DNA from: an uncultured delta proteobacterium
Lineage (GTDB): Bacteria; Desulfobacterota; Binatia; HRBIN30; BPIQ01
Assembly (NCBI GenBank): GCA_963761335.1
Contig: CAVXGR010000009.1
Location: 58,545-122,544, forward strand
Reading direction: 5' to 3'
DNA length: 64,000 bases
The translations under genes and the position numbers were made by a program. The notes under the pieces are model-generated. The model saw nothing but the letters and a program-made list of their open reading frames with translations. It was not told where the DNA came from and made no database searches. Of this stretch, positions 3,261-38,801 are shown piece by piece. The stretch's first letter is position 1; each line of letters starts with the position of its first letter.

Positions 3261-3758
3261 GGGGACACGCTACTTTTGCCTACTCGGACTCTCGGCACTG
3301 CTGCGAGCTCGGCAGCAAAAGTTGCCTGCTTCGAAAATCTGTTGGGTGAAGGTCTGGCGGAGTCCCGGCGCTGGGGTGGAGGCTTATCGCCCCGGAGGGG
3401 CGTAGGCATGTAGCCCCGGGTGTCAACCCGGGGACCGCGTTCCGATTGGCCCAGATCAGCGCCCCGGAAGGGCGCGGGCGTAGAGGCCGCGTGAATCACC
3501 TCGATGAGCGTCCCACGCACCCAGCGGTGAGCATCGGCGTAGAGGCGCGACATCGACGGAAGTTTGCCCGCGCCCCCTGGCGGGGCGCCTATGACGAAGC
3601 GCGCATTTTTCCCGGGTTTCACCCGGGGCTACACGCCACCGCCCCTCCGGGGCGAACTTCGCCCAGGCGAGAACCGCCAAATCTCTCTACGGGGCAGATC
3701 CCCAGCCTCATCTTCATCGTCTGCTGGCGAGCCGCAAGGTTCATGAGGCACTGTCCCC
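3261..3758 (+). mobile_element. Composite repeat copy 1: palindromic host (GGGGACACGCTACTTTTGC...GCAAAAGTTGCCTG/TCCCC) interrupted by a ~428-bp element (3326-3753) with cargo A
   Basis: Near-identical inverted copy at 38307-38801; ends shared with 13747-14103 and 20962-21326; CTG at both junctions. Confidence 0.8.
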
Positions 3759-3813
3759 TTCACCGCGGGACAGCGTGACGTCGGCGGCGGCTCTGTGCTA
3801 GGCTCCGCGGCGC

Positions 3814-4278
3814 ATGGCCAAGTTCCCCACCGAGGTCGAGCACTCGGTCACTGTCAAGGTGCCGCTGCCGCGCGCCTACGACTACATGTGGGACGTCCTC
3901 ACGTCATCGCAGTGCATCAGCGGGCTCGACAGCTGCGAGCGCACCAAGAAGGACACCTATCGCTTCGTCTTCGAGGAACGCTCCACCGGGCCGGTGAGCC
4001 TGGTGCCGGTCTACACCGCCCGCTACGAAGGCAACGGCAAGGACCGCATCACCTTCAAGGGCACCGGCGCCACGGGTGACAACACCGACGTCGACGGCAC
4101 CATCGAGCTGCACGCCAAGGGCGACTCCACCCGCATCACGCTGCGGCAGATGATCGCGCCGGACACCCCGGTGCCGCGCCTGGTGCAGGGGCTCATCCGC
4201 TCGTTCGTCGAGCGCGAGGCCTCCGGGGCGGTGAAGCAGTACCTGGCGAACGTCAGGAAGACGCTCGAGTCGTCCTAG
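3814..4278 (+). CDS. SRPBCC/CoxG family protein
   Basis: ~150 aa START-like pattern (VEHSVTV...YDYMWDV...CISG). Confidence 0.75.
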   Translation: MAKFPTEVEHSVTVKVPLPRAYDYMWDVLTSSQCISGLDSCERTKKDTYRFVFEERSTGPVSLVPVYTARYEGNGKDRITFKGTGATGDNTDVDGTIELHAKGDSTRITLRQMIAPDTPVPRLVQGLIRSFVEREASGAVKQYLANVRKTLESS

Positions 4279-4819
4279 CTGCCTCGAGGACCTTCGTCGA
4301 AGCGGCGGGCTCGAGGTCGATGTCCAGCGTCTCCATGAGACGCGCCATGGTCATGTAGAACCCGATTGCCAGGATCAGCTCGACGATCTCCTGCGGCGAG
4401 AAGGATTTCTCCATCTCCCCGAAGGTGTCGTCACACACCCGCACGTCGCGCACCAGCTCGGTGGTGAACTCGAGCAGGAGCCGCTCTCTGTCGCTGAAGG
4501 AGTCGGCATCGACGTCGCCTTCGTCGAGCGCCTGGATCTGCTGCGGAGTCACCCCGACCGCCTCGGCGATGGCAACGTGCTGCACCCACTCGTATTCCGC
4601 CGGCGAGAGCTTGGCGACCTGGAGAATTGCCAGCTCCCGCAAGCTGGCATCGAGCTTCTGCTGGGAGAGAATCACCGACCCCAGGCGCAGCAGAGGCCGG
4701 AAGCAGGTCTCGGCGTGCGCCATCAGACGGAAGATGTTCAGCTTGACCGGAAGCTCGTCGAGCGTCTTGCGGACTTCCTCGGAGGCCTTCTGCGGATCTG
4801 CGTAGGGAATACGAGCCAT
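4253..4819 (-). CDS. Carboxymuconolactone decarboxylase / AhpD family protein
   Basis: LRELAILQVA...YEWVQH...ERLLLEFTTEL; RBS GGAGG before MARIPY. Confidence 0.85.
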   Translation of the reverse strand: MARIPYADPQKASEEVRKTLDELPVKLNIFRLMAHAETCFRPLLRLGSVILSQQKLDASLRELAILQVAKLSPAEYEWVQHVAIAEAVGVTPQQIQALDEGDVDADSFSDRERLLLEFTTELVRDVRVCDDTFGEMEKSFSPQEIVELILAIGFYMTMARLMETLDIDLEPAASTKVLEAARTTRASS

Positions 4820-4894
4820 GGCATCCTCCTGGCTCTGCACGATGGGCGCAATCCGCGGGAGGCGCAAGCTCCGCCGCGGCGCCGGCGCCGGCGG

Positions 4895-5725
4895 TCACGC
4901 CATGAACAGCCCGCCGTTCACGTCCAGCGCCACGCCGTTGATGTACGACGCCTCGTCGGAGGCGAGAAAGGCGATCACCGCCGCCTGCTCCTCTGGCGTC
5001 GACAGGCGCTTGATCGGCATGAAGTATCCGTAGGCCGCCAGGCGCTCGGCGCGCGACCTCGCCTCGGCCTCCGAGCCGGCGCGGGCGACACCGCCGGCGC
5101 GGATCATCGGCGTATCGACGCCGCCGGGGCAGATGGCGTTGACGCGCACGCCGCGCGGGCCGTAGTCGAAGGCGAGGTGCCGGGTCAGCCCGAGGAGCCC
5201 GGCCTTGCTGGCGCTGTAGGCGAGTCCGCCGTTGGCGCTCTTCGAGCGACCGGCCAGCGAGGACACATTCACCACGGCGCCGTGACCGCGCGCCGCCATC
5301 CCCGGCAGCAGCGCCCGGCACCAGTGGAACGGCCCGCTCAGGTTCACCCCCATCACCAGTTGCCAGCGGCCGTCCTCGATCCCTTCGATGCCCTCCATGC
5401 CGGCGGTGTCGCCGATGCCGGCAACGTTCGCCAGCACTTCGGCGGCGCCAAGGTCGCGCTCGATGCGGCGGGCGACGGCATCGACCTCGCCGCTGCTGGA
5501 GACGTCACAGGTGAAGGCGCGCGCCACGGCGCCGGACTCGCGAATCGCCGCCGCCGTCTCCTCGGCGGTGGCGCCATTGCGGTCGATCACCGCCACTGCC
5601 GCTCCTTCGCGCGCCAGACGCCGGCAGGTGGCGCGGCCGATGCCGCTGCCGCCGCCGGTGACCACGGCCACGCGACCTGCGAACCGCCGCCATCCCGAGC
5701 CCTCGCCCGCCGGGTTCCCTGCCAT
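4895..5725 (-). CDS. Short-chain dehydrogenase/reductase
   Basis: TGGGSGIG, YSASK, NAICPG motifs. Confidence 0.9.
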   Translation of the reverse strand: MAGNPAGEGSGWRRFAGRVAVVTGGGSGIGRATCRRLAREGAAVAVIDRNGATAEETAAAIRESGAVARAFTCDVSSSGEVDAVARRIERDLGAAEVLANVAGIGDTAGMEGIEGIEDGRWQLVMGVNLSGPFHWCRALLPGMAARGHGAVVNVSSLAGRSKSANGGLAYSASKAGLLGLTRHLAFDYGPRGVRVNAICPGGVDTPMIRAGGVARAGSEAEARSRAERLAAYGYFMPIKRLSTPEEQAAVIAFLASDEASYINGVALDVNGGLFMA

Positions 5726-6501
5726 CACTTCTCCTTTCCCGGAAACAGAAAACGCCGCGGATCCTCGGTGGTCGCCGCCAGGAGAAGATCTCCATCGGTC
5801 TCGCTGACGTCGCCGATGGGGACCATGCGGCTGTAGGCGCGGAACTGGGTCTTGGTCATGTGCAGCGCCCAGGGCGCCTTGGCGGCGAGCTGCTGCACCC
5901 ATTCGTCGACGGCCACGTCGAGATGCTCTTCGGCGACGACGCGATTGAGCATGCCGTAGCGCTCCGCGTCGCGCGCCCCGAAGCGGTCGCAGAGAAGGAT
6001 GAGCTCCTTGGCGCGGGCGGCGCCGACCTCGCGGGCCAGCCGCGGCGCGGCGCCCCAGCTGAGGGGAATGCCGAGATCCACCTCCGGGATCTGGAAGACA
6101 GTGCTCTCCGCGGCGATGCGCAGGTCACACGCCAGCGCCAGGACCACACCGCCGCCGATGGCGTGGCCGTGCAGCCGCGCGATGGTGATCGCCTCGACGT
6201 CCTCGATCGCCTGCAGCGCCCGCCGGCCGACCTGCGAGGCCCAGCGGCGCTCCCGGGCGCCGGCGCCGGAGGCGCGGGCGAGGCGGGCCGGAGGATCCTT
6301 GCGATCGGCACCGGCACAGAACGACCGGCCGCGGCCGCCGAACACCACCACCTGCGCCTCGAAGTGGCGCTGCAGATCGGAGAATACCTGGGCGATCTCC
6401 TCCAGTGCCTGCGCGTTCAGTGCGTTCAACCGCTCGGGCCGGTTGAGCCAGACGCGAGCCACCGGCCCGTCGCACTCGAGGGTCAGCGTCTCGAATCCCA
6501 T
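5725..6501 (-). CDS. Enoyl-CoA hydratase/isomerase family protein
   Basis: LNRPERLNAL, FCAGAD, GHAIGGG...LACDLR, PEVDLG. Confidence 0.9.
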   Translation of the reverse strand: MGFETLTLECDGPVARVWLNRPERLNALNAQALEEIAQVFSDLQRHFEAQVVVFGGRGRSFCAGADRKDPPARLARASGAGARERRWASQVGRRALQAIEDVEAITIARLHGHAIGGGVVLALACDLRIAAESTVFQIPEVDLGIPLSWGAAPRLAREVGAARAKELILLCDRFGARDAERYGMLNRVVAEEHLDVAVDEWVQQLAAKAPWALHMTKTQFRAYSRMVPIGDVSETDGDLLLAATTEDPRRFLFPGKEK

Positions 6502-6510
6502 GGCGATCGC

Positions 6511-7515
6511 CTACAGCAGCCCGAGATGACGCGCCAACACGTCGGCACCGAGGCCGAGCAGGAAGAGACTGCCGAAGCGGCGCGTGTGCTGAAAGGCGAA
6601 GGCGGCATACCACAGGGGCCAGATGTTGGGCGGGTACTGCGGCGGCGGCTCCTTCGGGCGGGGGTGGCGGAAGACGCGCACGGAGCGCACGTACCACGGC
6701 GCCGCGGCGAAGACGGCGAGCAGCAGCCAGGAGACGTAGCCGCTCAGCACCACCCCGATCACCAGCAGATACTGGGTGGTGAGCATGCCGATGGTCGCCA
6801 GGCGGGCACGGCGCTCGCCCAGCAGCACCGGCATCGTGCGAATTCCCTTGGCGGCATCGGCATCGAGCTTGTCGATGTGCTTGCCGAAGAGCACCGTGGT
6901 CGACGCCAGCGCCACCGGCAAGCTGGCGAGAATCACCGGCCAGGACATGTGCCCGGTGATCACGTAGTAGCCGCCGCCGATCATCAGCGGGCCCCAGACG
7001 AGGATCACCGCCACCTCGCCCATGCCGATGTACTTCAGCGGCCAGGTGTAGAAGAGGACGAAGAAGGCGCCGGTGGCCAGCAAGGCCACGGTCGCCTGGC
7101 CGCGGACGGCGACCAGGACGATACCGGCGGCGAGGGCGATCATGCCGGTGACGGCGATGTAGGTCAGCACCTCGCCGCGGGTCATGAGGCCGTGCTCGAG
7201 CGGCTGCGGCCCGTACTGGGCGCGGAAGTAGTTGTCCTTGTCGACCCCTTTGATGTGGTCGGTGAAGTCGTTCACCAGGTTGTTGGTGGCGTGCGCGAAG
7301 AGCAGGCCCACGGTCACCATCAACCACAGCCCGAGATCGAAGGAGCCGTCGCGCGCCGCCAGCAGCCCGGCGATGGTGGCGGAGATCAGCGTCATGACCA
7401 GAACCGCAGAGCGGGTGGCGATCAGCCAGCGCGAGATGATGTCGAGGCCCTTCCACTCCTCGTTGCTGACGCGCGGAATGACGTTGACGGCCTTCGCCCA
7501 CATGGAGACGTTCAT
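6511..7515 (-). CDS. menA: UbiA-family prenyltransferase, MenA-like (1,4-dihydroxy-2-naphthoate prenyltransferase)
   Basis: NLVNDFTDHIKGVD, FYTWPLKYIGMGE, DADAAKGIRTM motifs; multi-TM. Confidence 0.75.
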   Translation of the reverse strand: MNVSMWAKAVNVIPRVSNEEWKGLDIISRWLIATRSAVLVMTLISATIAGLLAARDGSFDLGLWLMVTVGLLFAHATNNLVNDFTDHIKGVDKDNYFRAQYGPQPLEHGLMTRGEVLTYIAVTGMIALAAGIVLVAVRGQATVALLATGAFFVLFYTWPLKYIGMGEVAVILVWGPLMIGGGYYVITGHMSWPVILASLPVALASTTVLFGKHIDKLDADAAKGIRTMPVLLGERRARLATIGMLTTQYLLVIGVVLSGYVSWLLLAVFAAAPWYVRSVRVFRHPRPKEPPPQYPPNIWPLWYAAFAFQHTRRFGSLFLLGLGADVLARHLGLL

Positions 7516-7614
7516 GGCTCAGATCCCTCCCGGCGGCATACCGCCGCCAACCGGACTCAGCGTACCCGAAAACGGCGCCGCGGCAAGGGACGCCGGCGCA
7601 GCGGGTCCGCACGC

Positions 7615-7775
7615 CCACGCCCCGGAACGGGGCGCAGGCATGTAGCCCCGGGGGTAAGAGGCTCTCTCAAAACCAGAAGCGGCGAGACGCCGCTTCTACC
7701 TTGGCCCGCGGGCTGGCGGAATCGTTTTGCCCGGGTTTTGAGACAGCCTCGCCAACCCGGGGTTCGGGGCGACCC
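7615..7775. repeat. GTAG-type REP-like palindrome interrupted by a 93-bp MITE (7658-7750) with 16-bp terminal inverted repeats
   Basis: GAGGCTCTCTCAAAAC...GTTTTGAGACAGCCTC inside GGCATGTAGCCCCGGG...CCCGGGG. Confidence 0.65.
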
Positions 7776-7790
7776 GGCGAGACGCCGCGT

Positions 7791-9032
7791 CTACTCGAGC
7801 TTCTGCGGCTCGGCGAGCAGCTCGGCCAGGGTATTGACGAAACGGGCGGCGTCGGCGCCGTCGACGACGCGGTGGTCGAAGGTCAGCGACACCGGCAACA
7901 CCTGCCGCGAAACGATGCCGCCCTTCTGGTCGCGGCCGAGACGTTCGGCGATGCGCCCGGTGGCGAGGATGGCGACCTCGGGGTAATTGGGAATCGGCGT
8001 GGCGAACATGCCGCCGATCGAGCCGATGTTGGAGATCGAGAAGGTGCCGCCGCGCACCGCCCCGAGATCGACGGCGCGGCGGCGGGCGGCGGCGGCCAGC
8101 GACTCGACCTCGGCGGCGATGTCGCCGATCGATTTGCGGTCGGCGTCGCGAATCACCGGCACCATGAGCCCGTCGGCGGTGTCGACGGCAATGCCGATGT
8201 GCACGTAGTTCTTCAGCAGCACCTCCTCATGCGCGTCGTCCAGGGTGGCATTGAAGCGGCCGTGCCGCTGCAGCGCCCGCGCCGTCGCCTTCACGATCCA
8301 CGCAAAGACGCCGGCATGGGCCTCCTGGGCATTCGCGGCGCCGCGGCCGATGGCGACCAGCGCGGTGACGTCGATCTCGTCCATGTGCGTCGCCAGCGCC
8401 GTATGCGCCACCGCCATCTTCAGCCGCCGGGCGATGGTGCGGCGGATGCCGCGCAGGGCCACGCGCTCGACGGCGCCGTACTCGTCGCGCGCCTCGAGAT
8501 GCCCCGGCGTCTCCGCCTGCTCCGCCGCCGCCTCGCGCACGTCGGCCTCGGTGACCCGGCCGCCGCTGCCGCTGCCGCCGATCTCCTCGATGGCAACGCC
8601 GAGGTCGCGCGCCAAGCGCCGCACCGCCGGGGTCGCCAGCACCTGGTGCTCGGAGCTGCCCCGCGGCGCCGCCGGCGGCGGCGGCAGATCGACGACCCGA
8701 TCGTCGAGGACGCCGACAACCGTGGTCGACTGGCGCCGCTCCGCGGGCGTGGCCTTCCGCGCCGCGGCCGGCGCCGCCTTGTCCTCGCTCTCTCCTGCGC
8801 CCAGGATCCACACCAGCACCTCGCCCACCTCGACGGTGTCCCCCTCTCGGTGGCGGATGCGGCCGATGCGGCCCGCCGCGGGAGCCGGCACCTCGACCAG
8901 CGCCTTGTCGGTCTCGACCCGCAGAATGATCTGATGCTCGGCGACCGCATCGCCCTCCGCCACCAGCCACTCCACGATCTCCGCCTCGCGGATGCCCTCT
9001 CCCAGATCCGGCAAACGAAACTCGACCGCCAT
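7791..9032 (-). CDS. pdhC: 2-oxoacid dehydrogenase E2 (dihydrolipoamide acyltransferase)
   Basis: Lipoyl domain ETDKA, E3-binding ATPAVRRLAR, catalytic DHRVVDG. Confidence 0.9.
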   Translation of the reverse strand: MAVEFRLPDLGEGIREAEIVEWLVAEGDAVAEHQIILRVETDKALVEVPAPAAGRIGRIRHREGDTVEVGEVLVWILGAGESEDKAAPAAARKATPAERRQSTTVVGVLDDRVVDLPPPPAAPRGSSEHQVLATPAVRRLARDLGVAIEEIGGSGSGGRVTEADVREAAAEQAETPGHLEARDEYGAVERVALRGIRRTIARRLKMAVAHTALATHMDEIDVTALVAIGRGAANAQEAHAGVFAWIVKATARALQRHGRFNATLDDAHEEVLLKNYVHIGIAVDTADGLMVPVIRDADRKSIGDIAAEVESLAAAARRRAVDLGAVRGGTFSISNIGSIGGMFATPIPNYPEVAILATGRIAERLGRDQKGGIVSRQVLPVSLTFDHRVVDGADAARFVNTLAELLAEPQKLE

Positions 9033-9047
9033 GCCCGATCCTCGGTC

Positions 9048-10019
9048 TCAGAACGCCAGGGCCTCGTCGATCGCCTGCGCGATCCTGGCGGCACCGGGCA
9101 GATAGGCGGACTCCAGCTTGTAGAGGGGCATGATCGCGTCGGCTCCGGCGACGCGGATCACTGGCGACTGCAGGTTCAGAAGGCAGTGCTCCTGGATGAG
9201 AGCGGCGACCTCCGCCGACAGGCTGCCCGTCTTCGGCGCCTCGCAGGCGATCACGGCGCGGCCGGTCTTGCGCACCGAGTCGACGATCGTATCGAGATCG
9301 AGTGGCGCCAGGCTGCGCAGATCGATCAGCTCGACGTCGGCGCCGGGCCGCTGCTCGAGGGCTTCGCCGCAGTCCCGTACCAGCGCTCCCCAGGTGATCA
9401 GAGTGAGAACGCTGCCCTCGCGCACCACCCGCGCCTCGCCGAGCGGCACCGTGTACGGCTCCTCCGGCACCTCCTGGCGCAGCGAGCGGTAGAGCCGCTT
9501 GGGCTCGAAGAAGAGAACCGGGTCGGGATCGAGGATGGCGGCGCGCAGCAGCCCCTTGGCGTCGTAGGGCGTGCTCGGCAGCACGACCTTGAGACCGGGG
9601 ATGTGGGCGAAGAGCGCCTCGGGGCTGTCGGAGTGATGCTCCGGCGCGTGGATGCCCCCGCCCCACGGACAGCGCACCACCAGCGGCACCGACCACTGGC
9701 CGCGGGAGCGCGTGTGAAAGCGAGCGGCGTGCGAGGCGAGCTGATCGAGGGCCGGCAGCAGAAACCCCTCGAACTGGATCTCGGCCACCGGCCGCATCCC
9801 GGCCAGCGCCATGCCGATGGCAGCGCCGACGATGCCGCTCTCCGCCAGCGGTGTATCGATCACCCGCTGCTCGCCGAAGCGTTGCGCCAGCCCCTCCGTG
9901 GCGCGAAAGACCCCGCCATTGCGGCCGACGTCCTCGCCGAGCACCACCACGCTCGGGTCTTCCTCGAGCGCCTGCACGAGCGCCTCTTGAACGGCCTGCA
10001 CCAGGGTTCGCGCCGCCAT
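9048..10019 (-). CDS. pdhB: 2-oxoacid (pyruvate) dehydrogenase E1 beta
   Basis: GEDVGRNGGVFR, DTPLAESGI, EHHSDSPE. Confidence 0.92.
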   Translation of the reverse strand: MAARTLVQAVQEALVQALEEDPSVVVLGEDVGRNGGVFRATEGLAQRFGEQRVIDTPLAESGIVGAAIGMALAGMRPVAEIQFEGFLLPALDQLASHAARFHTRSRGQWSVPLVVRCPWGGGIHAPEHHSDSPEALFAHIPGLKVVLPSTPYDAKGLLRAAILDPDPVLFFEPKRLYRSLRQEVPEEPYTVPLGEARVVREGSVLTLITWGALVRDCGEALEQRPGADVELIDLRSLAPLDLDTIVDSVRKTGRAVIACEAPKTGSLSAEVAALIQEHCLLNLQSPVIRVAGADAIMPLYKLESAYLPGAARIAQAIDEALAF

Positions 10020-10029
10020 GAAACCTCCT

Positions 10030-11142
10030 TCACGAAACCGTCTTGCGCGAGGCGGCGGCCGAGAGGGCCGACGGCGGCGCTGGCGCCGCCTGTCGCGGGC
10101 GCGGCGCCAGATGGTGCGCCGGCGAATTGCCCCAGGTGTAGCGCAGGATGTCGGCGAGATCCGGAGGCGGCATGGCCTCGGCGCGTTCGGTCGCCTCGTC
10201 CACCTGGCGCCGGCAATCCTCCACCAGTGCCACCTCGAGCTCCTCGTCCCAGCAATTGCGGCCCTCGAGATAGCGACGCATACGGAGCAGCGGATCGCGA
10301 GCCTTCCACGCCTCGACCTCGGCGGCGTCCCGGTAGCGGCTGGCGTCGTCGGCAGTGGTGTGGTCGCCGATGCGATACGTCAGCGCCTCGATGAAGGTGG
10401 CGCCGCCGCCGGCACGCGCCCGCTCCACCGCCTCGCGAGTCGCCGCGTAGCAGGCGAGCACGTCGTTGCCGTCGACCTGGATGCCCTCGAGGCCGTAGCC
10501 GAGCGCCTTCTGCGCCAGGGTGGCGGCGCTGCACTGGCGGGCCCGCGGAACGCTGATCGCCCACTGGTTGTTCTGGCAGAGGAAGACGACCGGCGCCCCG
10601 AAGACACCGGCCATGGTCATGCCCTCGTGGAAATCGCCGGTGCTGGTGGCGCCGTCGCCGAAATAGCAGGCGGTCACCCAGCTCTCGCCGCGCAGCTTGC
10701 TGGCCATCGCCATGCCCACCGCGTGCGGCACCTGCGTGCCGACGGGAACCGCGAACGGCAGGCAGTGCTTCTCCTTGAAACCCAGCATGCCGCGCTCGTC
10801 GCCGCCCCAGTAGGCGAGGATGTTCTCCATGGGGATGCCGCGGCTGATGAGCACGCCGTTCTCGCGATACGAAGGCACGATCCAGTCCTTGGGAGCGAGC
10901 GCCAGGGCGCTGCCCACCTGCGCCGCCTCCTGACCGAGCGATTGCGCGTAGGTGCCGATCCGCCCCTCCCGCTGCAGAAAGAAGGCGCGCTCGTCAAAGC
11001 TGCGCGTCAGCACCATTGCCGCGTACAGGTGGAGCATCTCGGTCTCCGCCAGCGGCGGTAGCAACTCGGTGTCGGCGCGCCCCTCGGCGTCGAGGATCTG
11101 CAGATACGGCACCTCGCCGCGAAAGACGATCTCACGGGGCAT
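10030..11142 (-). CDS. pdhA: 2-oxoacid (pyruvate) dehydrogenase E1 alpha
   Basis: GQEAAQ, TPP motif GDGATS...NN, YRIGDHTTADD. Confidence 0.92.
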   Translation of the reverse strand: MPREIVFRGEVPYLQILDAEGRADTELLPPLAETEMLHLYAAMVLTRSFDERAFFLQREGRIGTYAQSLGQEAAQVGSALALAPKDWIVPSYRENGVLISRGIPMENILAYWGGDERGMLGFKEKHCLPFAVPVGTQVPHAVGMAMASKLRGESWVTACYFGDGATSTGDFHEGMTMAGVFGAPVVFLCQNNQWAISVPRARQCSAATLAQKALGYGLEGIQVDGNDVLACYAATREAVERARAGGGATFIEALTYRIGDHTTADDASRYRDAAEVEAWKARDPLLRMRRYLEGRNCWDEELEVALVEDCRRQVDEATERAEAMPPPDLADILRYTWGNSPAHHLAPRPRQAAPAPPSALSAAASRKTVS

Positions 11143-11172
11143 AGGGACCCGTTCTCCTTCCTGCCGGTCAGC

Positions 11173-12873
11173 TCAGCCGGCGAACGACCCTGTACGCCAT
11201 GCTAGCAAGTTCTGTTCGACTGACCCACCCATCGGTGCGAATCGGGTTTCGGGGTTGGCGAGTTCCGGAATCCTGAACCGCGCCCGCGTCGTTTGTCGGC
11301 GCACCGGCGCCGGCGCCGCCTTCGGCCCGGTGACCCGCGCCGGCTGCGGGGGCGGATGCTCGGCGAGGCGATCGCGGCGCACCCAGAAGCTGTTGCCGAA
11401 GCCGAACGACTGCATGTGCTCGCGGGAAAGCGACGGAAAGGAGACGCTGTCGTAGAGCCGGCTCACCATCTGGCGCAGGGCCTCCGCCTTCTCCGGGAGG
11501 AGGACGCCCTGGCGCCGCAGCCAGTCGATCAGGTCGAGGCCGCCGGTGTGTGCCGGCCACGGGTCCTCGGCGATCACAGGGGGCGGATGCGACAGAAGCC
11601 GATCGGCAAACCCCGCCAGTCGGCGCTGCGTTTCCGGTGTGCCGAGCCAGAAGGAGTAGTGCCCCGCCTGCTGCAGGTCGGTGGCGTCGTAGACCATGAT
11701 CGGGTGATAGGGCGCGATCAGCACCACCGGCTCGTCTCCGGCGACGCTGCGCAGCCAATCGAGAAGGCGCAGCTGCATCTGCTGCACATCCCGATCGGCG
11801 GGAAACGAGATTGCGGCGATCAAGCGCCCGAAGAAGACGACGGCGACGCCGACGGCGATCAGCGCCCCGTTGCGCCGCAGCACGCCGTAGCGATCGGAGA
11901 TGAGCGGCACGATCGCGACGAGCAACATTGCCGTAGCCAGCAGCAGGTAGACGGCGGCGTAGTCGACCTTGTGCGGGTTGGCGAGGTGAAAAACGAGCGC
12001 CACCAGCCATACGAGAATGAGCGCCCGTCGCCGCAGCGGCCCCGCCAGGCGGCCGCGCCACGAGAGCGCGATGGCGGCGACGCCGAAGGCAGCCAGGGTG
12101 ATCTCCGCCGGACCCACATCGAAGCTCCAGGTCACCACCTCGGAGGAAGAGACGAAGCGGAACGCCCAGAATATCATCTCGCCCCAGAGCCCGTGCACGG
12201 TGACGTAGACGAGGGTGGGAAGCATCCCGAGAAGAAGGCCGCCCGCCCACGCCGCCGCCTGCCGGCGCCACCGGCGGCGCGGCAGGCAGAGGGCCACCAG
12301 CATCGGCTGCACCGTTAGAAAAGGAAGAAGGCGCACCGACATGCTGCAGCCGAGAGCGAGCGCCGCCGCGGCCAGCAGGGGCCGGCCCGCGCCGGGTGCC
12401 TCCGGGTCGATGCCGGCGAGCAGGCAGACGTGCGCCATAAACAGAAGCGCGGCGACGTACTCGACGCGAAAGATCCAGACCTGGCAGTAGCTCATGGTGC
12501 CGAGCGCCAGGACGGCCAGCACCGCGGCCTGCGCCGCGCCGGCGCGCACGGCGCGCCCGGCGAGCCAGACGATCAGGCCGAAGACGATTGCCGTGAAGCA
12601 GCGGGCGGCGAGCAGGAGCGCCGAGGGCGTGTGGAACCACAGGACCACCGGGCTGAACAGCAGCCACAGACCGGGGGGGTGGATCTCGAAGAAGTCGCGA
12701 TAGGGAAGCGCCCCGTGCGCCACCAGCCAGATGGAGTGCAGGTGATAGACATCGTCGTCGTTGATCTCGGCGTGCAGGCCGCAGTAGAGGCTGGCGAGAG
12801 CGCCCAGGATCGCGGCCAGCGCCAGCCACGGCAGCCGCCCGCGGCGCGGCGCTGTCAATCCATTCCCTTCCAC
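11173..12873 (-). CDS. Polytopic membrane protein, GT-C (ArnT/PMT-like) fold likely
   Basis: N-terminal TM then D-D-x-x-H...LPYRDFFEIHPPG loop typical of GT-C enzymes; many TM segments. Confidence 0.55.
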   Translation of the reverse strand: MEGNGLTAPRRGRLPWLALAAILGALASLYCGLHAEINDDDVYHLHSIWLVAHGALPYRDFFEIHPPGLWLLFSPVVLWFHTPSALLLAARCFTAIVFGLIVWLAGRAVRAGAAQAAVLAVLALGTMSYCQVWIFRVEYVAALLFMAHVCLLAGIDPEAPGAGRPLLAAAALALGCSMSVRLLPFLTVQPMLVALCLPRRRWRRQAAAWAGGLLLGMLPTLVYVTVHGLWGEMIFWAFRFVSSSEVVTWSFDVGPAEITLAAFGVAAIALSWRGRLAGPLRRRALILVWLVALVFHLANPHKVDYAAVYLLLATAMLLVAIVPLISDRYGVLRRNGALIAVGVAVVFFGRLIAAISFPADRDVQQMQLRLLDWLRSVAGDEPVVLIAPYHPIMVYDATDLQQAGHYSFWLGTPETQRRLAGFADRLLSHPPPVIAEDPWPAHTGGLDLIDWLRRQGVLLPEKAEALRQMVSRLYDSVSFPSLSREHMQSFGFGNSFWVRRDRLAEHPPPQPARVTGPKAAPAPVRRQTTRARFRIPELANPETRFAPMGGSVEQNLLAWRTGSFAG

Positions 12874-12946
12874 CTCACCTCGGCCCTCGATCGGCGCCCT
12901 CGTATCGCAGCCAGCGGGTCTTTGCCAGGCCCGCGGCCAGAGCCGC

Positions 12947-13723
12947 TCAGCCGCCCATGTCGGGCTGCTTGAACGCCGTCCAGCCGCGATCGCAGTTGAG
13001 CACCGCCCCGGTGAAGCTGCGCGACTCGTCCGAGGCGAGGAAGACCACGACCTCGGCGATCTCCTCCGGCGCCTGCAGCCCGGTGGCGTGTCCGCGGGCG
13101 AACGCCGCCTTCATGGTCTCGCTCTGCCAGATGAGGGCGTTCATCGGCGTGTCGACGTAGCCGGGGCTGATGGCGTTGACGCGGATGTTGAGCATGCCGC
13201 AGCCGTGCGCCATCGAGCGGGTCAGCAGCGCCACCCCGCCCTTGGAGGCGGCGTAGCCGTCCAGCCCGCCGAGCGGCAGATGCGCCATGGACGACGCCGT
13301 GTTGATGATCGAGCCGCCGCCGGCCTTCGCCATCTCGGGAATGGCGTAGTGCGAGCAGTAGAAGACGCTCGAAAGGTTGGTGCGGATGACGCGATCCCAC
13401 ACCGCCGGATCGACGCGCGCCGTGAAGCCGTCCTCGAATGGCAGGGCGATGCCGGCGTTGTTGTAGAGAACGTGCAGCGCCCCCCAGGCCTGCACCGCCT
13501 CGCCCACCAGGCGCTCACACTGCGCCGCGTCGCTGACGTCAGCGGCGGCAAAGCGGGCTTCGCCGCCGGCGGCGCGGATCGCCTCGACGGCGGCGTTGCC
13601 GGCCTCCGCGTTCACATCCGAGACCACCACCCGCGCCCCTTCCCGCGCCAGGGCGATGGCCCCGGCGCGCCCCAGCCCGGAGCCGCCCCCGGTGACCAGC
13701 GCCACCTTGTTCTCGAGCCGCAT
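12947..13723 (-). CDS. Short-chain dehydrogenase/reductase
   Basis: TGGGSGLG, NNAG, YAASK, NAISPG. Confidence 0.9.
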   Translation of the reverse strand: MRLENKVALVTGGGSGLGRAGAIALAREGARVVVSDVNAEAGNAAVEAIRAAGGEARFAAADVSDAAQCERLVGEAVQAWGALHVLYNNAGIALPFEDGFTARVDPAVWDRVIRTNLSSVFYCSHYAIPEMAKAGGGSIINTASSMAHLPLGGLDGYAASKGGVALLTRSMAHGCGMLNIRVNAISPGYVDTPMNALIWQSETMKAAFARGHATGLQAPEEIAEVVVFLASDESRSFTGAVLNCDRGWTAFKQPDMGG

Positions 13724-13746
13724 GATCCCCTCCTCTTTTGCCAAGT

Positions 13747-14103
13747 GGGACAGGCTACTTTCGCCGCCCCGATTTTAGACGAATGCCCCGAGCTCGACCG
13801 CAAAGTTGCCTGCTTCGAAAATCTGTTGGGTGTGCGCTTCGGGGGCGCGTTCCCTCTCCCGCATTACTTGGCGGGAGAGGGTCAGGGTGAGGGTGTCGAT
13901 CTCTGTGAAGGCCGTGGAGATTCACGAGCTTTCAGTGAGACAGGAACCCCTCACCTTGATCCTCTCCCCGCGGAAAGATGCGGGGAGAGGAGACCCGCCC
14001 CCGCGGCGCGGAAGTATCATCGCAAGCGTCTGATCGGTGAATCAGGACGCCGTCCATTTTCATCGTCTGTTGGTGAGCCGCAGGCTCATGACGCACTGTC
14101 CCC
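13747..14103 (+). mobile_element. Composite repeat copy 2: host palindrome interrupted by a ~289-bp element (13810-14098) with cargo B
   Basis: Inverted near-identical copy at 20962-21326; same ends as copies 1 and 4; cargo has CCCTCTCCC/GGGAGAGGG palindromes. Confidence 0.8.
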
Positions 14104-14105
14104 TC

Positions 14106-16229: not shown

Positions 16230-16271
16230 TCATTTTAGTCTGTGCCGAGGCCAAAGGAGGGGAGACCCGCA

Positions 16272-17522: not shown

Positions 17523-17605
17523 AAGCGCCTCGCTGCTTCTCGCCCCCGCCAGGGCCGCGCACACGGCCCCCGGGGCGACCACTGGCCGTGTGCGCCGACG
17601 AGAAT

Positions 17606-17697
17606 CGCCCCGCCAGGGGCGCCGGCATGTAGCCCCGGGTGCCTCACCCGGGGACAATCGGGCGACCTCTCATGGTGCGCCCCGTCAGGGGCGCGGG
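17606..17697. repeat. GTAG-type REP-like palindrome cluster
   Basis: CGCCCCGCCAGGGGCG, GGCATGTAGCCCCGGG...CCCGGGG, GCGCCCCGTCAGGGGCGC. Confidence 0.7.
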
Positions 17698-17702
17698 CAC
17701 GT

Positions 17703-18293: not shown

Positions 18294-18431
18294 GTCGGTC
18301 TCACGCTATCCCCCCGTCGCCGGCCTGACAATCGCTGCACGGCAGGGAGGCAGGCAACCGCCGGGGAGCGCGGCCGGTCTTTGACCGACAGGGCGCGTAG
18401 GATACGTTGACCGTCGACTCTCGATTCCATC

Positions 18432-18851: not shown

Positions 18852-19026
18852 GGTCCCCCTGGGAGCGCGGCCGGCCCGGCCGCCTCTGCCAACGAAAGCA
18901 GAGGCGGCCGCTCCCAAAGACTCGATGCAGACCGTCGCCGCGCGCGGCCAGCTATACGCCACCGCCCCTCCGGGACAACAACGTCCAAACTCCGTAGACG
19001 AAACGTCCCGCCTCGCCGGGAATCCA

Positions 19027-19129
19027 TCCGCCATAGCGGAGAATGTTGGGCCCAATATCCGCGTATCATGCGGAGATACTTCTTGTCCGTGCGGAGAATA
19101 CAGGCCATAATGTCCGCAGGACATGCGGA
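19027..19129 (+). promoter_or_regulatory. Array of TCCGC-N4-7-GCGGA inverted repeats upstream of the fic gene (putative operators)
   Basis: TCCGCcataGCGGA, TCCGCgtatcatGCGGA, TGCGGAGAATA, TCCGCaggacatGCGGA in an AT-richer leader. Confidence 0.55.
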
Positions 19130-19134
19130 TATAA

Positions 19135-20961: not shown

Positions 20962-21326
20962 GGGGGACAGTGCGTCATGAGCCTTGCGGCTCGCCAGTAG
21001 ACGATGAAAATGGACGGCGTCCTGATTCACCGATCAGACGCTTGCGATGATACTTCCGCGCCGCGGGGGCGGGTCTCCTCTCCCCGCATCTTTCTGCGGG
21101 GAGAGGATCAAGGTGAGGGGTTCCTGTCTCACTGAAAGCTCCGTGAATCTCCACGGCCTTCACAGAGATCGGCACCCTCACCCTGACCCTCTCCCGCCAA
21201 GTAATGCGGGAGAGGGAACGCGCCCCCGAAGCGCACACCCAAGAGATTTTCGAAGCAGGCACCTTCTCGGCGGCGAAACGCCTCGATCGTTCGCCGAGGG
21301 GATCTGCGCCGAAAAGGGGCCTGTCC
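20962..21326 (-). mobile_element. Composite repeat copy 3: host palindrome interrupted by a ~291-bp element (20968-21258) with cargo B
   Basis: Reverse complement of 13810-14098; host arms GGACAGGCCCCTTTTCGGCG / CGCCGAGAAGGTGCCTG-TCCCC. Confidence 0.8.
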
Positions 21327-21373
21327 TCGGCGGCCGCCATCTGCGGCCGGGACGGCCGCGCTCCCAGATGCCA

Positions 21374-35188: not shown

Positions 35189-38100
35189 AGCTCGCCGACA
35201 CCTGCATCCGCCGGCCGGTGTTCGCCATCATGCTCATCGGCGGCCTGGTGGTCCTCGGCATCGTCTCCATTCCGCGGCTGGGGATCGACCTCTTCCCGCG
35301 CGTCGAGTTCCCCCTGATCACCGTCACCACGGTGCTCGAGGGCGCCGCTCCCGAGACCATGGAGCGGGAGGTGACGCAGATCCTCGAGGAGTCGATCAAC
35401 ACCATCGAGGGGATCCGCAGCCTGCGCAGCGCCTCGAGCGACTCGCTGTCGCTGCTCTTCGTGGAGTTCGAGCTCGAGTACGACATTCAGGAGAAGGCGC
35501 AGGAGGTGCGCGACAAGGTGGCAGCAGTGCGCGCCGAGCTGCCGCGCGACCTCGAGCCGCCGGTGGTCGATCGCGTCGATCCGGACGCCTCGCCGATCCT
35601 GGCGATCATGGTGGCCGGGCCCGACTCGATCCGCTCGCTGAGCGAGTTCGCCGACAAGCGCCTCAAGCCGCGCCTCGAGCGCATCCGCGGCGTCGGCAGC
35701 GTCACCCTGGTCGGCGATCGCGCCCGCGAGATTCGCATCTGGCTCGACCCGGTGCGCCTGAGCGGCTACGCGCTGGCGGTGGACGACGTGCTCGAGGCGC
35801 TACAACGCGAGCACGTCGAGCTTCCCGGCGGCCGCATCGAGACGCCCGCCAGCGAATACACCATCAAGACCAAGGGCAAGATCACCAGCGCCTTGAACTT
35901 CGGCGACATCGTCGTGGTCGAGCGCGCCGGCCGCGCCATTCACCTGCGCGACATTGCGGTGGTCGAGGACGGCATGGCCGAGGAGCGCACCGTGTCCTAT
36001 CTCAACGGCCGCCGCGGTGTGGCCCTGCTGGTGCGCCGCCAGTCGGGCGAGAACACCGTCGCCGTCGTCGACGCCGTCGAGAAGCAGCTGGCGCTGATCC
36101 GCGCCGACCTGCCGCCCGGCTACCAGCTCATCGAGGCGATGGACGCCTCGCGCTTCATTCGCAGCGCCATCCACGACGTCTCCATCGACCTGGCCTGGGG
36201 CGCACTGCTGGCGGCGGTGGTGGTTCTCCTCTTCCTGCGCAACGTGCGCACCACGCTGATCGCCGCCGTCGCCATCCCCTCGTCGCTGGTGGGCAGCTTC
36301 GTGTTCTTCTACGCCTTCGGCTTCACGCTGAACACCATGACGCTGATGGCCCTGTCGCTGTCGATCGGGCTGCTGATCGATGACGCCATCGTCGTGCTCG
36401 AGAACGTCTACCGCCACATGGAGGCCGGCGAGTCGCCGGCGCAGGCGGCGTCATCGGGTACCGCGGAGATCGGCCTGGCCGTGGTGGCGACGACGCTGGC
36501 GATCTGCGCCGTCTTCGTCCCCATCGCCTTCATGGGCGGCATCGTCGGCCGCTTCTTCCGCGAGTTCGGCCTGGTCGCCACCTTCGCGGTGCTCAACTCG
36601 ATGCTGGTGGCGCTGACCCTCACGCCGATGATGTGCTCCCGGGTTCTGCGCCTGCAGGAGCATCGCGGGCGCGCCTATCGACTGCTCGAGTCCGGCTACG
36701 TGGCGCTGGAGAACCACTACCGCCGCGTGCTCGCTTGGGGGCTGCGGCACCGCCTGGCGGTGGTGGCGCTGGCGCTGGCGGCGGTCGCCGGCGGCATGGC
36801 GATCGCCAGGCGCGTCCCCGTCGACTTTCTCACCACCGAGGACCGCAGCGAGTTCAACGTCTGGCTCAAGCTGCCGCTCGGCTCGACCGTCGGGCAGACG
36901 CAGGCGGCGGTGCGCACCGTCGAGGCGGAGCTGCGGCAGCAACCGGAGGTGCGCAACGTCTTCAGCACCATCGGCAGCGGCGTCAAGAAGCGCGTCAATG
37001 AGGCGGTACTGTACGTGCAGATGGCGCCCAAGGAAGCGCGCCGGCGCGGCCAGGTGGCTCTCATGGCCGAGATGCGCCGGCGCATTCCCACGCTCGGATT
37101 CCGTCTCAGCGAGTTCGCCGTCGAGGAGGTGCCGCTGATCAGCTTCCCCGGAGCGCGCAGCGCACAGCTCATGTACGCCCTGCGCGGCCCCGACATCGAC
37201 CACCTGCAGCGGCTGGCGAACGAGCTGATGGCGCGCATGCGCCAGGCCGGGGGCTATGCCGATCTGGCGACCTCGTACGAGACCGGAAAGCCCGAGATCG
37301 CCCTCGACATCGACCGCGGCCGCGCCGCCGACCTGGGCGTTCCGGCGCTGCAGATCGGCCGCACCATCGCTGCCATGGTGGCCGGGTTCGAGGCCACCAC
37401 CTTCGAGGAGAACGGCGAGCGCTACAACGTGCGCCTGCAGGTGAGCCCGCAGTATCGCGACGATCCGGTCAAGCTCGACCTGCTGCGCGTGCGCGCCCCG
37501 AGCGGCGCGCTTGTGCCGCTGCGCAACCTGGTCACGCCGCGCATCGGCAGCGGCCCCGTGCAGGTGGATCGCGAGAATCGCACGCGGGCGATCACCCTCT
37601 ACGGCAATCTCGAAGGCAAGTCCGCGGGCACCGCTGACCAGGAGGTGATGCGCTTCGCCCGCGAGATGGAGATCGGCGGCGAGTACGAGATCGAGCCGGT
37701 CGGGCCGTCGAAGAGCCTGCGCGAGACCTCCGCGGCGGTCGGCTTCGCCTTCGTGCTGGCGCTGATCGCCATCTACATGATCCTCGCTTCGCAGTTCAAT
37801 TCGTTCGTCCACCCCTTCACCATCATGCTGTCGGCGCCGCTGTCGTTCATCGGCGCCTTCGCCGCCGTCTGGCTGCTCGGCTTCTCCCTCGACCTGATGG
37901 GGCAGATCGCCTTCCTGCTGCTCATGGGCATCGTCATGAAGAACTCCATCCTGCTGGTCGACTACACCAACACCCTGCGGGCGCGCGGCCTCTCCCTGTA
38001 CGAGGCCGTTCTCGAGGCCGGCCCGGTGCGCATGCGACCCGTCCTGATGACGGCCGTCTCGACCATCTTCGGCATGCTGCCGGTGGCCTTCAGCACCGGC

Positions 38101-38292
38101 GACGGCTGCGAGTGGCGCAACCCCATGGGGATGATCTCCATCGGCGGCCTCACGGCGTCGACCTTCCTCACCCTGCTCGTCGTGCCTGTCGTCTACACCC
38201 TTTTCGACGAGGCCGGGGTCTTCCTGTCGCGCACCTTCCGCCGCTCGGCAGCGGCGTCTCCAGAGCCGCCGCGGGAAGGCGTCGTCCCGTAG
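35185..38292 (+). CDS. RND efflux permease (AcrB/CusA superfamily)
   Basis: [37 protein letters not shown]; 1035 aa. Confidence 0.95.
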
Positions 38293-38306
38293 CGGCCGGC
38301 AGGCAT

Positions 38307-38801
38307 GGGGGACAGTGCGTCATGAGCCTGCGGCTCACCAACAGACGATGAAAATGAGGCTGGGGATCTGCCCCGACAAGAGACTTGGAAGTCCTCGCCC
38401 GGCTGAAGTTCGCCCCGGAGGGGCGGTGGCGTGTAGCCCCGGGTGAAACCCGGGAAAAAGGCGCGCTCCGTCACGCGCGCCCCGCCAGGGGCGCGGGCAA
38501 GTTTTCGTCGATGTCACGCCTGTACGCCGATGATCACCGCTGGGTGCGTGGGAAGCTCATCGAGGTGATTCACGCGGCCTCTACGCCCGCGCCCCTGCGG
38601 GGCGCTGATCTGGGCCAATCGGAACGCGGTCCCCGGGTTAACACCCGGGGCTACATGCCTACGCCCCTCCGGGGCGATAAGCCTCCACCCCAGCGCCGGG
38701 ACTCCGCCAGACCTTCACCCAACAGATTTTCGAAGCAGGCACCTTTTGCGGCAGAGCATCACCAGCAGCGATGCTTTCCCTACGGCAAAAGTAGCCTGCC
38801 C
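38307..38801 (-). mobile_element. Composite repeat copy 4: host palindrome interrupted by a ~426-bp element (38313-38738) with cargo A
   Basis: Reverse complement of 3326-3753 with scattered substitutions. Confidence 0.8.

Follow-up and report, generated by a model that had tools for sequence, protein, structure and literature searches.

Several described systems resemble the repeats that we analyse here. The ssr9 A'-B' module of ISPpu9 (an IS110-family element of Pseudomonas putida KT2440) is found next to the IS in tandem and also as orphan copies within REPs, the modules having shared end boxes, and circles of the module alone are formed with the enzyme supplied in trans (PMC12288879). Elements of the IS91 family are described as entering beside a tetranucleotide and ending in a similar one, with no target duplication; at their terIS a subterminal palindrome adjoins the cleavage site, circles form and mini-elements move in trans (PMC13181058). 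RAYT and IS200-family nucleases cut single strands at a CT on either side (5' or 3') of a hairpin (PMC8266576). Integron cassettes, bounded by the halves of a folded attC site, are another term of comparison.

The 64-kb stretch of DNA analysed (the window) contains four elements at the coordinates and on the strands given by an earlier, sequence-only reading, 3326..3753 (+), 13810..14098 (+), 20968..21258 (-) and 38313..38738 (-), and their likeness is far beyond chance. All four begin with CTG-CTTCGAAAATCT(G/C)TTGGGTG and end in ..TTCATCGTCT..TGG.GAGCCGCA(A)GG.TCATGA.GCA-CTG, and all are flanked by ..AAAG(T/G)TGC before and TCCCC after, with a matching left arm of a palindrome 56-66 nt upstream. 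The pairing of the cargos was also correct: copies 1 and 4 share one of them (cassette type T1) and copies 2 and 3 the other (type T2).

Copy 1 (428 bp including both CTGs) illustrates the organization. The left arm of the host palindrome (GGGGACACGCTACTTTTGC, belonging to an arm family found genome-wide) is at 3261..3279 (+), and the loop-side part of the right arm, GCAAAAGTTGC, forms together with the left CTG the left half of the target (3315..3328, +, by the target profile), while the outer part of the same arm, TCCCC, has been pushed away by the insertion to 3754..3758 (+). The left end occupies 3326-3348 and the right-end box starts at about 3709, with a hairpin (CGAGCC-GCAA-GGTTCA) at 3728-3743 and the right CTG at 3751-3753, all on the + strand. 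The cargo includes, on the - strand at 3388..3433, a GTAG-tagged REP hairpin (REP-C) that matches the Rfam family Acido-Lenti-1 with 40 bits (cut-off 37). In copy 4 (426 bp, - strand) the REP-C hairpin is at 38631..38676 (+) with 37 bits, just at the cut-off, the left arm of the host palindrome (GGGCAGGCTACTTTTGCCG) at 38783..38801 (-) and the outer part of the right arm, TCCCC, at 38308..38312 (-). Copy 2 (289 bp) has its left arm (GGGACAGGCTACTTTCGC) at 13747..13764, the loop-side part of the right arm (GCAAAGTTGC) plus left CTG at 13800..13812 and TCCCC at 14099..14103, all on the + strand; its cargo is a doublet of another hairpin, REP-B, that is also found alone in this genome and in related genomes. 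Copy 3 (291 bp) lies beside the left arm of a variant host palindrome (GAGGACAGGCCCCTTTTCGGCG, 21307..21328, -), with TCCCC at 20963..20967 (-).

This pattern reaches far beyond the window, and the four elements are members of a family of non-autonomous mobile cassettes that numbers about 100 in the genome of this soil bacterium. A count by both ends (blastn-short) gave 107 left and 114 right ends in the genome, to which nhmmer added some 10 diverged left ends and another 10 or so diverged right ends. Complete cassettes number 95, 66 of the ~431-bp type (T1) and 29 of the 289-bp type (T2), and they contain exactly two cargo families that have only the ends in common (a 23-nt left end and a right end of ~52 nt). 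They have no coding capacity whatsoever, each one consisting of a non-coding cargo of other REP-type hairpin repeats placed between two halves of one site. Their non-coding, non-autonomous and target-specific nature is as the sequence-only reading had it.

The cassettes have been inserted at ~80 loci dispersed in the genome, and nearly all of them sit in one arm of a repeated 72-bp palindrome, at the same base. The target logo obtained from 78 left and 66 right outer flanks is ..AAAAG(T/G)(A/T)GC|CTG|TCCCC, and the opposite (left) arm was recognizable 56-66 nt upstream at 52 of the 78 outer-left junctions (allowing up to 3 mismatches in 14 positions). The palindrome is hairpin-forming, with a conserved A.A or T.T mismatch. 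Its 14-nt arm pattern appears 122 times in this genome (the reversed control, 0 times) and at most once per genome in 51 other genomes of the order. Empty host palindromes do exist, about 50 of the 56 complete ones listed being truly empty and the remainder variant-ended or occupied, and in two cases both arms of a single palindrome carry insertions. CTG is common to both junctions. The left flanks of near-identical cassettes differ and therefore the insertions were independent; spreading of the composite as one unit was seen only as a single local tandem triplication (contig C5:378783-379946).

What is new here is that the right end, the CTG and the left end, read in this order, make up one module of ~79 nt (hereafter M). 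As a single strand, M would form an outer helix of 6 bp (ATTTTC with GAAAAT) and, inside it, a hairpin of 7 bp (GTGAGCC-loop-GGCTCAT), leaving the invariant CTG unpaired, 8-9 nt 3' of the hairpin. A BLAST search of 401 genomes of the phylum recovered M in three more genomes, all belonging to another family (f20), where it bounds cassettes of 107-142 nt. Across 22 aligned M sequences from the four genomes there is little or no variation in CTG, CATG and TTTTCAT. In the same alignment 97.2% of the cells of the two helices pair, compared to 29-53% when the partners are slid, and a covariation score as high was reached by none of 500 shuffles. Pair 40-51 is A-T in 12 sequences, G-C in 10 and broken in none, while pair 20-73 is C-G in 11 and A-T in 4; within this genome we find GAACC/GGTTC compensations and G..A-type loops (GCAA, GCA, GTAA, GTGA). 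Compensatory changes thus appear to back both helices, and conservation and covariation extend across genera, the covariation reflecting few independent events among related sequences. The folding energy of M was no better than that of shuffled sequences (z = -0.64 under the energy model used), and M had no match to any Rfam family. The left end is conserved but has no hairpin like the one in the right end. On this comparative evidence the cassette ends appear as the halves of one conserved, hairpin-forming site that is also present in distant relatives. Entry at the same base, together with ends that are halves of one conserved site, indicates movement by site-specific recombination.

Cassettes also stack in arrays in which neighbours have a single CTG in common. 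In mixed neighbour pairs T2 lies to the left of T1, on the side of the palindrome loop, in 14 of 17 cases (binomial p = 0.013). T2 is the younger cassette type; its median pairwise identity is 95.9%, 20 of the 351 pairs reach at least 99%, and the flanks of the copies are unrelated. The T1 partners of mixed pairs are mutually nearest relatives in only 1 of 12 (~2 expected by chance), so that the mixed pairs have not spread as units. At one orthologous locus a contig has a T1 cassette where another contig, ~95% identical, has a T2-type array; this difference and the near-identity of T2 copies in unrelated flanks speak for recent activity. At a polymorphic locus a left end is chimeric, its first 26 nt being T1-type before the T2 cargo starts. 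This chimera suggests exchange between cassettes and, with the local triplication already mentioned, a T1x3 array of near-identical units and the failure to find a partner enzyme, would fit cassettes that are no longer (or never were) mobilized by a dedicated enzyme, M being a functional RNA or a protein-binding module and spread being due to gene conversion, recombination between shared ends and duplication. We consider this very doubtful. Precise entry at one base in ~80 loci, in palindromes with unrelated loops and including near-identical T2 copies, speaks against it; exact and oriented junctions are not a product of homologous recombination, and a functional RNA finds no echo in the Rfam search. 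In public data no excision or circle product was seen, and the circle-junction test is not diagnostic because the junction of right end, CTG and left end is also formed in chromosomal tandem arrays.

As to the enzyme that moves the cassettes, the sequence-only reading pointed to IS110 elements, and the resemblance is real: as in the IS110/IS1111 group, terminal inverted repeats and target duplications are lacking, both junctions have the same short core and the targets are sequence-specific, REP-type palindromes (often the case in that group as well). Like the ssr9 module, the cassettes lack genes, have the same short end boxes as another module, occupy a REP palindrome at one fixed dinucleotide and are found in tandem and as orphans; ISPpu9 provides a published precedent for a DEDD recombinase acting in trans (PMC12288879), with a bridge RNA that would read the cassette junction as donor and the palindrome arm as target. 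Half-site use as described for IS621 could even account for the stacking (bioRxiv 10.64898/2026.08.31.748434). The geometry of insertion is the same for the resident IS110-type element, which enters a different hairpin arm at 6 nt from the 3' base of that arm, and a 10-nt similarity (GAGCCG..TCAT) between the two right-end tails was noticed by eye, post hoc. However, the parentage itself was not supported, given that this sole IS110-type element (5 intact copies, plus a sixth match that is a truncated 195-aa ORF) differs from the cassettes in its ends and in its target, which is the 3' arm of another hairpin, one that belongs to the cargo, with 3 of the 5 copies lying outside cassettes. The search for a cassette with a recombinase as cargo found no such gene between cassette ends anywhere in the assembly; the two cassettes that do carry an IS110-family transposase gene (C7:72923-74927 and C18:1149824-1151786) carry it within this IS, which has its own ends. 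Guide-like matches in the IS110 untranslated regions and in the cargos did not exceed chance in k-mer screens, a genome-wide guide screen (51 windows) stayed at chance level, no bridge-RNA model was matched in Rfam, and the donor and target sequences around the CTG are unlike each other. PF01548 had no match in the three other M-bearing genomes (97-99% complete). In ISPpu9 a partner IS with identical boxes is present and ssr9 has 8 copies (PMC12288879), whereas here there is no such partner for ~100 cassettes, whose ends form one structured module apparently conserved across genera devoid of IS110 transposases. All in all, an IS110/IS1111 derivation looks quite improbable.

Rolling-circle miniature elements of the IS91/Helitron type (Y2 HUH), in which the left end would be an origin beside the target tetranucleotide and the right end a terminator with its subterminal palindrome, seem scarcely plausible. 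The cassettes do share traits described for IS91 and its mini-elements with oriIS and terIS (PMC13181058): no inverted repeats, no duplication, the same short sequence at the flank/left-end junction (..GCCTG) and at the right terminus (..CACTG), and a palindrome just inside the terminating end. There are also three Y2_Tnp loci in the genome, one of them at the beginning of the contig from which the window comes, and none of 14 control genomes gave a match. Yet the cassette ends bear no relation to those of these resident IS91-like copies, arrays of mixed type are not rolling-circle concatemers, and PF04986 was found in none of the three other M-bearing genomes, by a search that matched no control genome either and had no positive control. 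The traits of a classical MITE, derived from a DDE transposase, are lacking: the ends are not inverted repeats and CTG alone is common to the junctions. This genome has a true MITE (T3), with both terminal inverted repeats and a target-site duplication.

As a best guess for the enzyme we tentatively put forward a single-strand HUH nuclease of the Y1 (RAYT/IS200-like) type, acting in trans. Y1_Tnp matches were present in all four M-rich genomes (5, 10, 9 and 7), their number being only loosely related to that of M over the 9 genomes compared, and the right-end hairpin, structurally conserved and placed 8-9 nt 5' of the invariant CTG, is a subterminal hairpin near a candidate cleavage site. Like REP/BIME (REPIN) repeats with their RAYTs and other palindrome-associated elements derived from IS200/IS605, the cassettes are high-copy intergenic hairpin repeats in mosaic arrays, with a hairpin followed within a few bases, on its 3' side, by a CT of the cleavage type, with the enzyme class in every M-rich genome and with REP doublets as their own cargo. 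Unlike them, they enter one exact base of another repeat in a fixed orientation, the outer helix joins the two cassette ends, and at none of the Y1 loci examined is a RAYT flanked by M. No enzyme was found linked to the cassettes. The five Y1 loci of this genome are all at least 3 kb away from any cassette end or host arm, save for one RAYT that has an ordinary occupied palindrome ~2.3 kb away and is itself flanked by a different REP; in the f20 genomes the right-end motif was absent from the 10 Y1 loci examined (of 26 matches), none of which was flanked by or carried cassette hairpins. The four bases 5' of the hairpin are NNTG or NNGG, in disagreement with the published GTAG-to-CT guide rule. 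A replication-linked orientation bias is known for IS608 and ISDra2 and expected of single-strand elements of the IS608 type. Cassette orientation had no link with the sign of the GC skew (21/15 versus 20/22; 78 loci, contigs >40 kb), and there is no lagging-strand bias, something that would fit the double-strand target of an IS110 enzyme.

In the cycle that we propose, a cassette would leave as a circle containing M whole. The circle would enter by strand exchange at or next to the CTG of a chromosomal ..AAAAGNNGC-CTG-TCCCC in the arm of the 72-bp REP-like palindrome; a Y1-type nuclease, if it is the enzyme, would nick in trans after CT(G), downstream of the hairpin. On entry M would be split, its halves becoming the left and right ends of the cassettes in the window, and the left half of the target would survive at the left junction and be used again, arrays growing on that side.

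A tyrosine recombinase (integron-integrase-like or Xer-like) acting on folded or duplex M and the palindrome arm is unlikely, but has several features in its favour. The plan of M is attC-like (outer helix, unpaired spacer with the crossover, inner helix, variable loop), its two-helix fold being backed by pairing, and the target is likewise a hairpin-forming palindrome, with a conserved mismatch. As in integron cassettes, the cargo is swappable, the halves of a single folded site bound it and new units join the arrays at one fixed side, as happens at attI. The genome has 5-6 C-terminal fragments of integron integrases, and XerC/D-type genes exist in all four M-bearing genomes. Against this, none of the four genomes has an integron integrase that reaches the family cut-off (TIGR02249, cut-off 265 bits; the best match here, one of the fragments, had 131), the GTTRRRY/RYYYAAC cores are absent, and a common core of 3 nt is short for the overlap region of a tyrosine recombinase. 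Unlike integrons there is no attI, the cargo is non-coding and the insertions, instead of using one platform, are dispersed in a REP-like palindrome, none adjoining an integrase; the one palindrome adjoining xerC is within chance expectation.

Altogether, we lean towards regarding these repeats as non-autonomous cassettes bounded by a split recombination site; a single-strand nuclease (HUH/Y1, RAYT-like) would be the likeliest agent of their movement in trans. Were a tyrosine recombinase responsible instead, the arrays would be the dispersed counterpart of the cassette arrays of integrons, or of integrative elements that exploit Xer.

All four cassettes described in the sequence-only reading are present at exactly the positions proposed (window 3326-3753 and 13810-14098 on the plus strand, 20968-21258 and 38313-38738 on the minus strand), and the description given of them is correct. 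Each starts with CTG-CTTCGAAAATCT(G/C)TTGGGTG, terminates in ..TTCATCGTCT..GAGCCGCA(A)GG.TCATGA.GCA-CTG and is flanked by ..AAAG(T/G)TGC before and TCCCC after. When an element is deleted together with one CTG, the right arm of a palindrome is restored, the left arm of which lies upstream. Copies 1 and 4 have one cargo in common and copies 2 and 3 a different one. The genome assembly (6.26 Mb, 29 contigs, 68% G+C; the window is C9:58545-122544) contains 107 left and 114 right ends by blastn-short, to which profile searches added about 10 diverged ends of each kind. Complete elements correspond to 95 end pairs and fall by cargo clustering into exactly two families, T1 (copies 1 and 4; n=66, consensus 431 nt) and T2 (copies 2 and 3; n=29, consensus 289 nt), counts that include two or three duplicated cassettes (e.g. 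C29:8806-9233, the counterpart of C9:36010-36437; C-numbers are contigs). The unpaired ends belong to 5'-truncated, 3'-truncated or diverged copies, about equally many of each. Several of the small contigs (C1, C3, C14, C20, C22, C23 and C26-C29) duplicate stretches of large ones at 94-100% identity, so that the assembly must hold strain variants or redundant contigs.

What the two families have in common is limited to their ends, about 23 nt on the left side and about 52 nt on the right. Both cargos consist of other repeats, each of which is also present alone: in T2 a doublet of REP-B hairpins, which are seen across the order, and in T1 two inverted, GTAG-tagged REP-C hairpins that Rfam scores as Acido-Lenti-1. 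A reverse-strand ORF of T1 (74 aa) had no Pfam match, and in a search of 40 other genomes a T2 query gave matches through its cargo hairpins only. The exact left-end pattern gave 15 matches in species-representative genomes and one in JGI metagenome contigs, all by chance in unrelated sequence (records of this genome were possibly left out of both collections). The cassette family is real, abundant, recently active, site-specific and non-coding.

The insertion site has the consensus (C/G)(G/C)(C/G)AAAAG(T/G)(A/T)GC-CTG-TCCCC (78 outer-left and 66 outer-right flanks) and forms one arm of a palindromic repeat about 72 bp long, with 19-bp arms and a loosely conserved interior of 32-41 nt (mostly 34-35), whose polarity is given by a characteristic A.A or T.T mismatch. 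Empty host palindromes exist, about 50 in the genome, and at 52 of the 78 occupied sites a left arm (≤3 mismatches of 14) was found 56-66 nt upstream. Near-identical cassettes sit in unrelated flanks, and every insertion is therefore a separate event, as had been proposed from the four differing loops. Two palindromes have both arms occupied, which is expected if both strands of the arm sequence can be read. Matches to the arm pattern number 122 in this genome (0 for the reversed control) and 0-1 in each of 51 others of the order; the cassette ends were absent from the 40 other genomes of the order searched for them. The sole place where the whole composite has spread as one unit is C5:378783-379946, with three tandem repeats of period 546 bp, the first two made of palindrome and T1 with a variant left end (CTGCCTCGAAGATGTC..) and the third of an empty palindrome. 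A separate peculiarity is the T2 copy at C15:30429-30794 (locus L028), located 5 nt past an intact palindrome with CTGTCCCCACAG on both sides, which may reflect a duplication of 12 nt or a recombination event.

Cassettes also occur next to each other. Eighteen arrays consist of two or three cassettes, all complete, and in some additional pairs one partner is truncated or diverged; within arrays one CTG is common to the neighbours. T2 copies are 92-100% identical to their own consensus (most of them 96-100%), with a median pairwise identity of 95.9% (≥99% in 20 of 351 pairs), and the T1 median is 90.6%; by these sequence identities T2 is the younger family. Where the two families are neighbours, T2 occupies the palindrome-loop side in 14 of the 17 pairs (binomial p = 0.013), and the T1 partners are mutual closest relatives in only 1 of 12, against a chance expectation of about 2. 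This order, together with the unrelatedness of the T1 partners, indicates that new cassettes mostly enter at the junction of arm, CTG and left end. What is recognised and reused is the target's left half. As a source of strain variants the redundant contigs were of little use, since they provided one informative locus only: T1 is found there in one of two contigs (the main one and a redundant one about 95% identical to it), and the other has a T2-type element whose first 26 nt are of T1 type, together with a truncated T2.

Between neighbours, the right-end box, CTG and left-end box form a module of about 79 nt that we call M. An 80-nt query of these joined ends gave weak matches spanning the junction in three genomes, all from another family of the phylum (f20), among 401 phylum genomes. 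The arrangement there is TTTTCAT, about 10 nt, the hairpin GTG(A/G)GCC-loop-GGC(T/C)CAT, G(A/G)NNNN, CTG and YYTNGAAAAGTT. The cassettes between such modules measure 107-142 nt, again have REP hairpins as cargo and form arrays flanked by ordinary genes. An alignment of 22 units from four genomes shows no change in CTG, CATG or most of TTTTCAT. It supports two helices in M, an inner one, a 7-bp hairpin, and an outer one of 6 bp in which the box ahead of the hairpin pairs with the left-end box. Helix cells are paired in 97.2% of cases, versus 29-53% with the partners slid. Pair 40-51 is broken in no sequence: 12 have A-T and 10 have G-C. At pair 20-73, 11 have C-G and the four from the genome under study have A-T; copies in this genome also show GAACC/GGTTC compensations with loops that stay of the G..A type. 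The covariation score was matched by none of 500 shuffles, to be read with the relatedness of the aligned sequences and the small number of events in mind; both hairpin variants occur inside single genomes, which implies more than one event. Thermodynamic folding by itself does not set M apart from shuffles, and no Rfam family matches it.

A covariance model (R1) found M in 5 of 151 sampled phylum genomes, with at least 31 matches each in the present genome and in G060 and one each in G102, G138 and G058. The distribution is patchy, and G002, a member of the sample from the same family, had no match. The genes adjoining M copies on contig C2 of G060 form an ABC transporter operon and include no recombinase. 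On contig C7 of the same genome a c-di-GMP-I riboswitch (73.7 bits; L062:832-917) lies about 330 nt downstream of an M copy. In the literature retrieved we found no description of M; a Geobacter genome paper (PMC2700814) lists "multicopy nucleotide sequences", and M may already figure, uninterpreted, in that catalogue. The new findings are that the joined ends make up a conserved two-helix module, that this module occurs in distant genera, and that arrays grow on one side.

Which enzyme moves the cassettes is a matter of weighing several candidates. The sequence-only reading had pointed to IS110 elements, and two cassettes of about 2 kb do enclose a 363-aa IS110-family transposase (PF01548 and PF02371). 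This gene proved to be a passenger of the T2 cargo instead of the sought recombinase-carrying copy. It belongs to a resident element, ISx (IS110/IS1111-type, about 1.72 kb), with five copies at C7:72923-74927, C18:1149824-1151786, C24:58629-60465, C27:6484-8243 and C13:108523-110280, three of them in REP-B elements outside cassettes. Its constant target, GCGGG^AGAGGG, belongs to the 3' arm of the REP-B hairpin, and its subterminal inverted repeats are CCATGTACG / CGTACATGA; since both ends and target differ from those of the cassettes, ISx is not their parent and the attribution is unsupported. A 13-nt remnant of the ISx right end is also seen in a truncated T2 near C18:1098100. A sixth IS110 match (C4:120375-120794) is a truncated ORF, a 195-aa remnant. 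The three f20 genomes (97-99% complete) gave no match to an IS110-type transposase, screens for bridge-RNA guides gave chance-level matches, and neither a matching recombinase nor a bridge RNA, the marks of the IS110 family, was found for the cassettes. Movement by an IS110-type system is quite improbable. Less probable still is an IS91-type system. The form of IS91 ends (PMC13181058) resembles M, and the genome has three IS91-family (Y2) loci, one at the start of the window's own contig, but their ends are unrelated to those of the cassettes and a search run without positive control gave no IS91-type transposase match in the three f20 genomes.

A tyrosine recombinase working on folded M would parallel integrons, whose cassettes resemble those described here in the split folded site, the swappable cargo and the one-sided growth; they differ in that integrase, attI platform and core sequences are lacking here. 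The tyrosine recombinases of this genome are xerC and xerD homologues plus five to six dispersed C-terminal fragments of integron integrases (C18:975716-975943, C8:74284-74496, C18:295016-295240, C13:117919-118098, C18:97543-97668 and C17:207677-207751), which encode the last 25-76 residues only (up to 131 bits against TIGR02249), and no full-length integron integrase was found in it. Similar fragments are present in genome G423. A palindrome adjoining xerC lies in the ordinary xerC-hslV spacer, and a repeat of about 430 bp adjoining an intI fragment is an unrelated MITE with terminal inverted repeats and target duplications. We consider this enzyme class unlikely.

The candidate enzyme that we put forward, tentatively and at somewhat less than an even chance, is a Y1/HUH nuclease acting in trans, a grading that balances the evidence on both sides. 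RAYT and IS200/IS605 nucleases pick their targets by the left flank only. Their substrate plan is a hairpin plus a CT-containing cleavage site (PMC8266576), and REP/BIME-RAYT and IS200/IS605 ends resemble M in form: its hairpin is followed after 8-9 nt by a putative CT-containing cleavage site. Y1 matches number 5, 10, 9 and 7 in the four M-rich genomes (this one and the three of f20) and 4, 0, 2, 0 and 1 in five genomes where M is single-copy or absent. Against a Y1 enzyme speak the lack of a Y1 gene adjoining M among the five loci here and 10 of the 26 f20 matches, the lack of strand bias (cassette orientation does not follow the sign of GC skew) and a tetranucleotide 5' of the M hairpin unlike the published guide rule. 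None of the five Y1 matches here could be tied to cassette ends or arms. The RAYT-type gene at C11:377163-377762 (199 aa; L002:1663-2262) has arrays of a different repeat (GGGAGCGCGGCCATCTTGGCCGCC) on both sides, as a typical REP-RAYT unit, and was discarded because its flanking REP is another one; the gene at C5:7097-7900 carries inverted ends of its own; and a further Y1 gene, of about 340 aa, also has two truncated copies. In G423 three tandem RAYT genes, 647-696 bp apart, each have their own GTAG-tagged REP pair (C14:268197-269881; L044). The probability left after the four enzyme classes considered goes to some other enzyme or to no dedicated mobility.

Classical MITEs are different from these cassettes, as illustrated by the genome's own true MITE (about 430 bp, more than 30 copies genome-wide; window ~55071-55344, i.e. 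C9:113615-113888, and L023:779-1211), which has inverted ends GTAGTGGTGGATC...CCCCCACTAC, 8-9-bp target duplications and, as interior, a REP-C doublet resembling the T1 cargo. The closest published case in behaviour is the ssr9 module of ISPpu9, a gene-less unit with IS end boxes that resides in REPs, in tandem or as an orphan, and forms its own circles (PMC12288879).

Each cassette is flanked by the halves of M, neighbours have M whole between them and the CTG at the junction is invariant, which together suggest that M would be the recombination site of the cassette and the palindrome arm its docking site. A circular intermediate recombining at CTG would place the halves of M at the cassette borders. 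The public runs listed number five, all of them Logan contigs and none with RNA. Contigs over window 3000-22000, from four soil metagenome runs, were short, eight tabulated pieces of 95-501 letters, and uninformative on excision, the listed joints not falling at cassette borders; contigs that break off at 3326 and 14098 do so where repeats branch. A more far-reaching, and rather doubtful, proposal is that M might be a folded, attC-like single-strand site of a new cassette system, served by a chromosomal non-transposon enzyme (whether a domesticated Y1/HUH nuclease or a member of a recombinase family new to mobile DNA) that would load cassettes serially at dispersed REP-type docking palindromes, an integron-like logic on REP repeats conserved across distant genera of the phylum.

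The spread of REP-type repeats and mosaic intergenic elements has so far been poorly understood. The cassettes offer exact junctions, a docking site both empty and filled, a readable order of arrival and ends that make up one conserved structured site, and M provides a concrete substrate of about 79 nt for an enzyme search, in which CTG is invariant and both helices can be tested. If the enzyme is of the Y1/RAYT type, this would be a clear natural case in which that class inserts DNA at a specific target and in a set orientation. With an enzyme of some other kind, the cassettes would represent a new site-specific system whose small size would make it interesting for DNA insertion tools.
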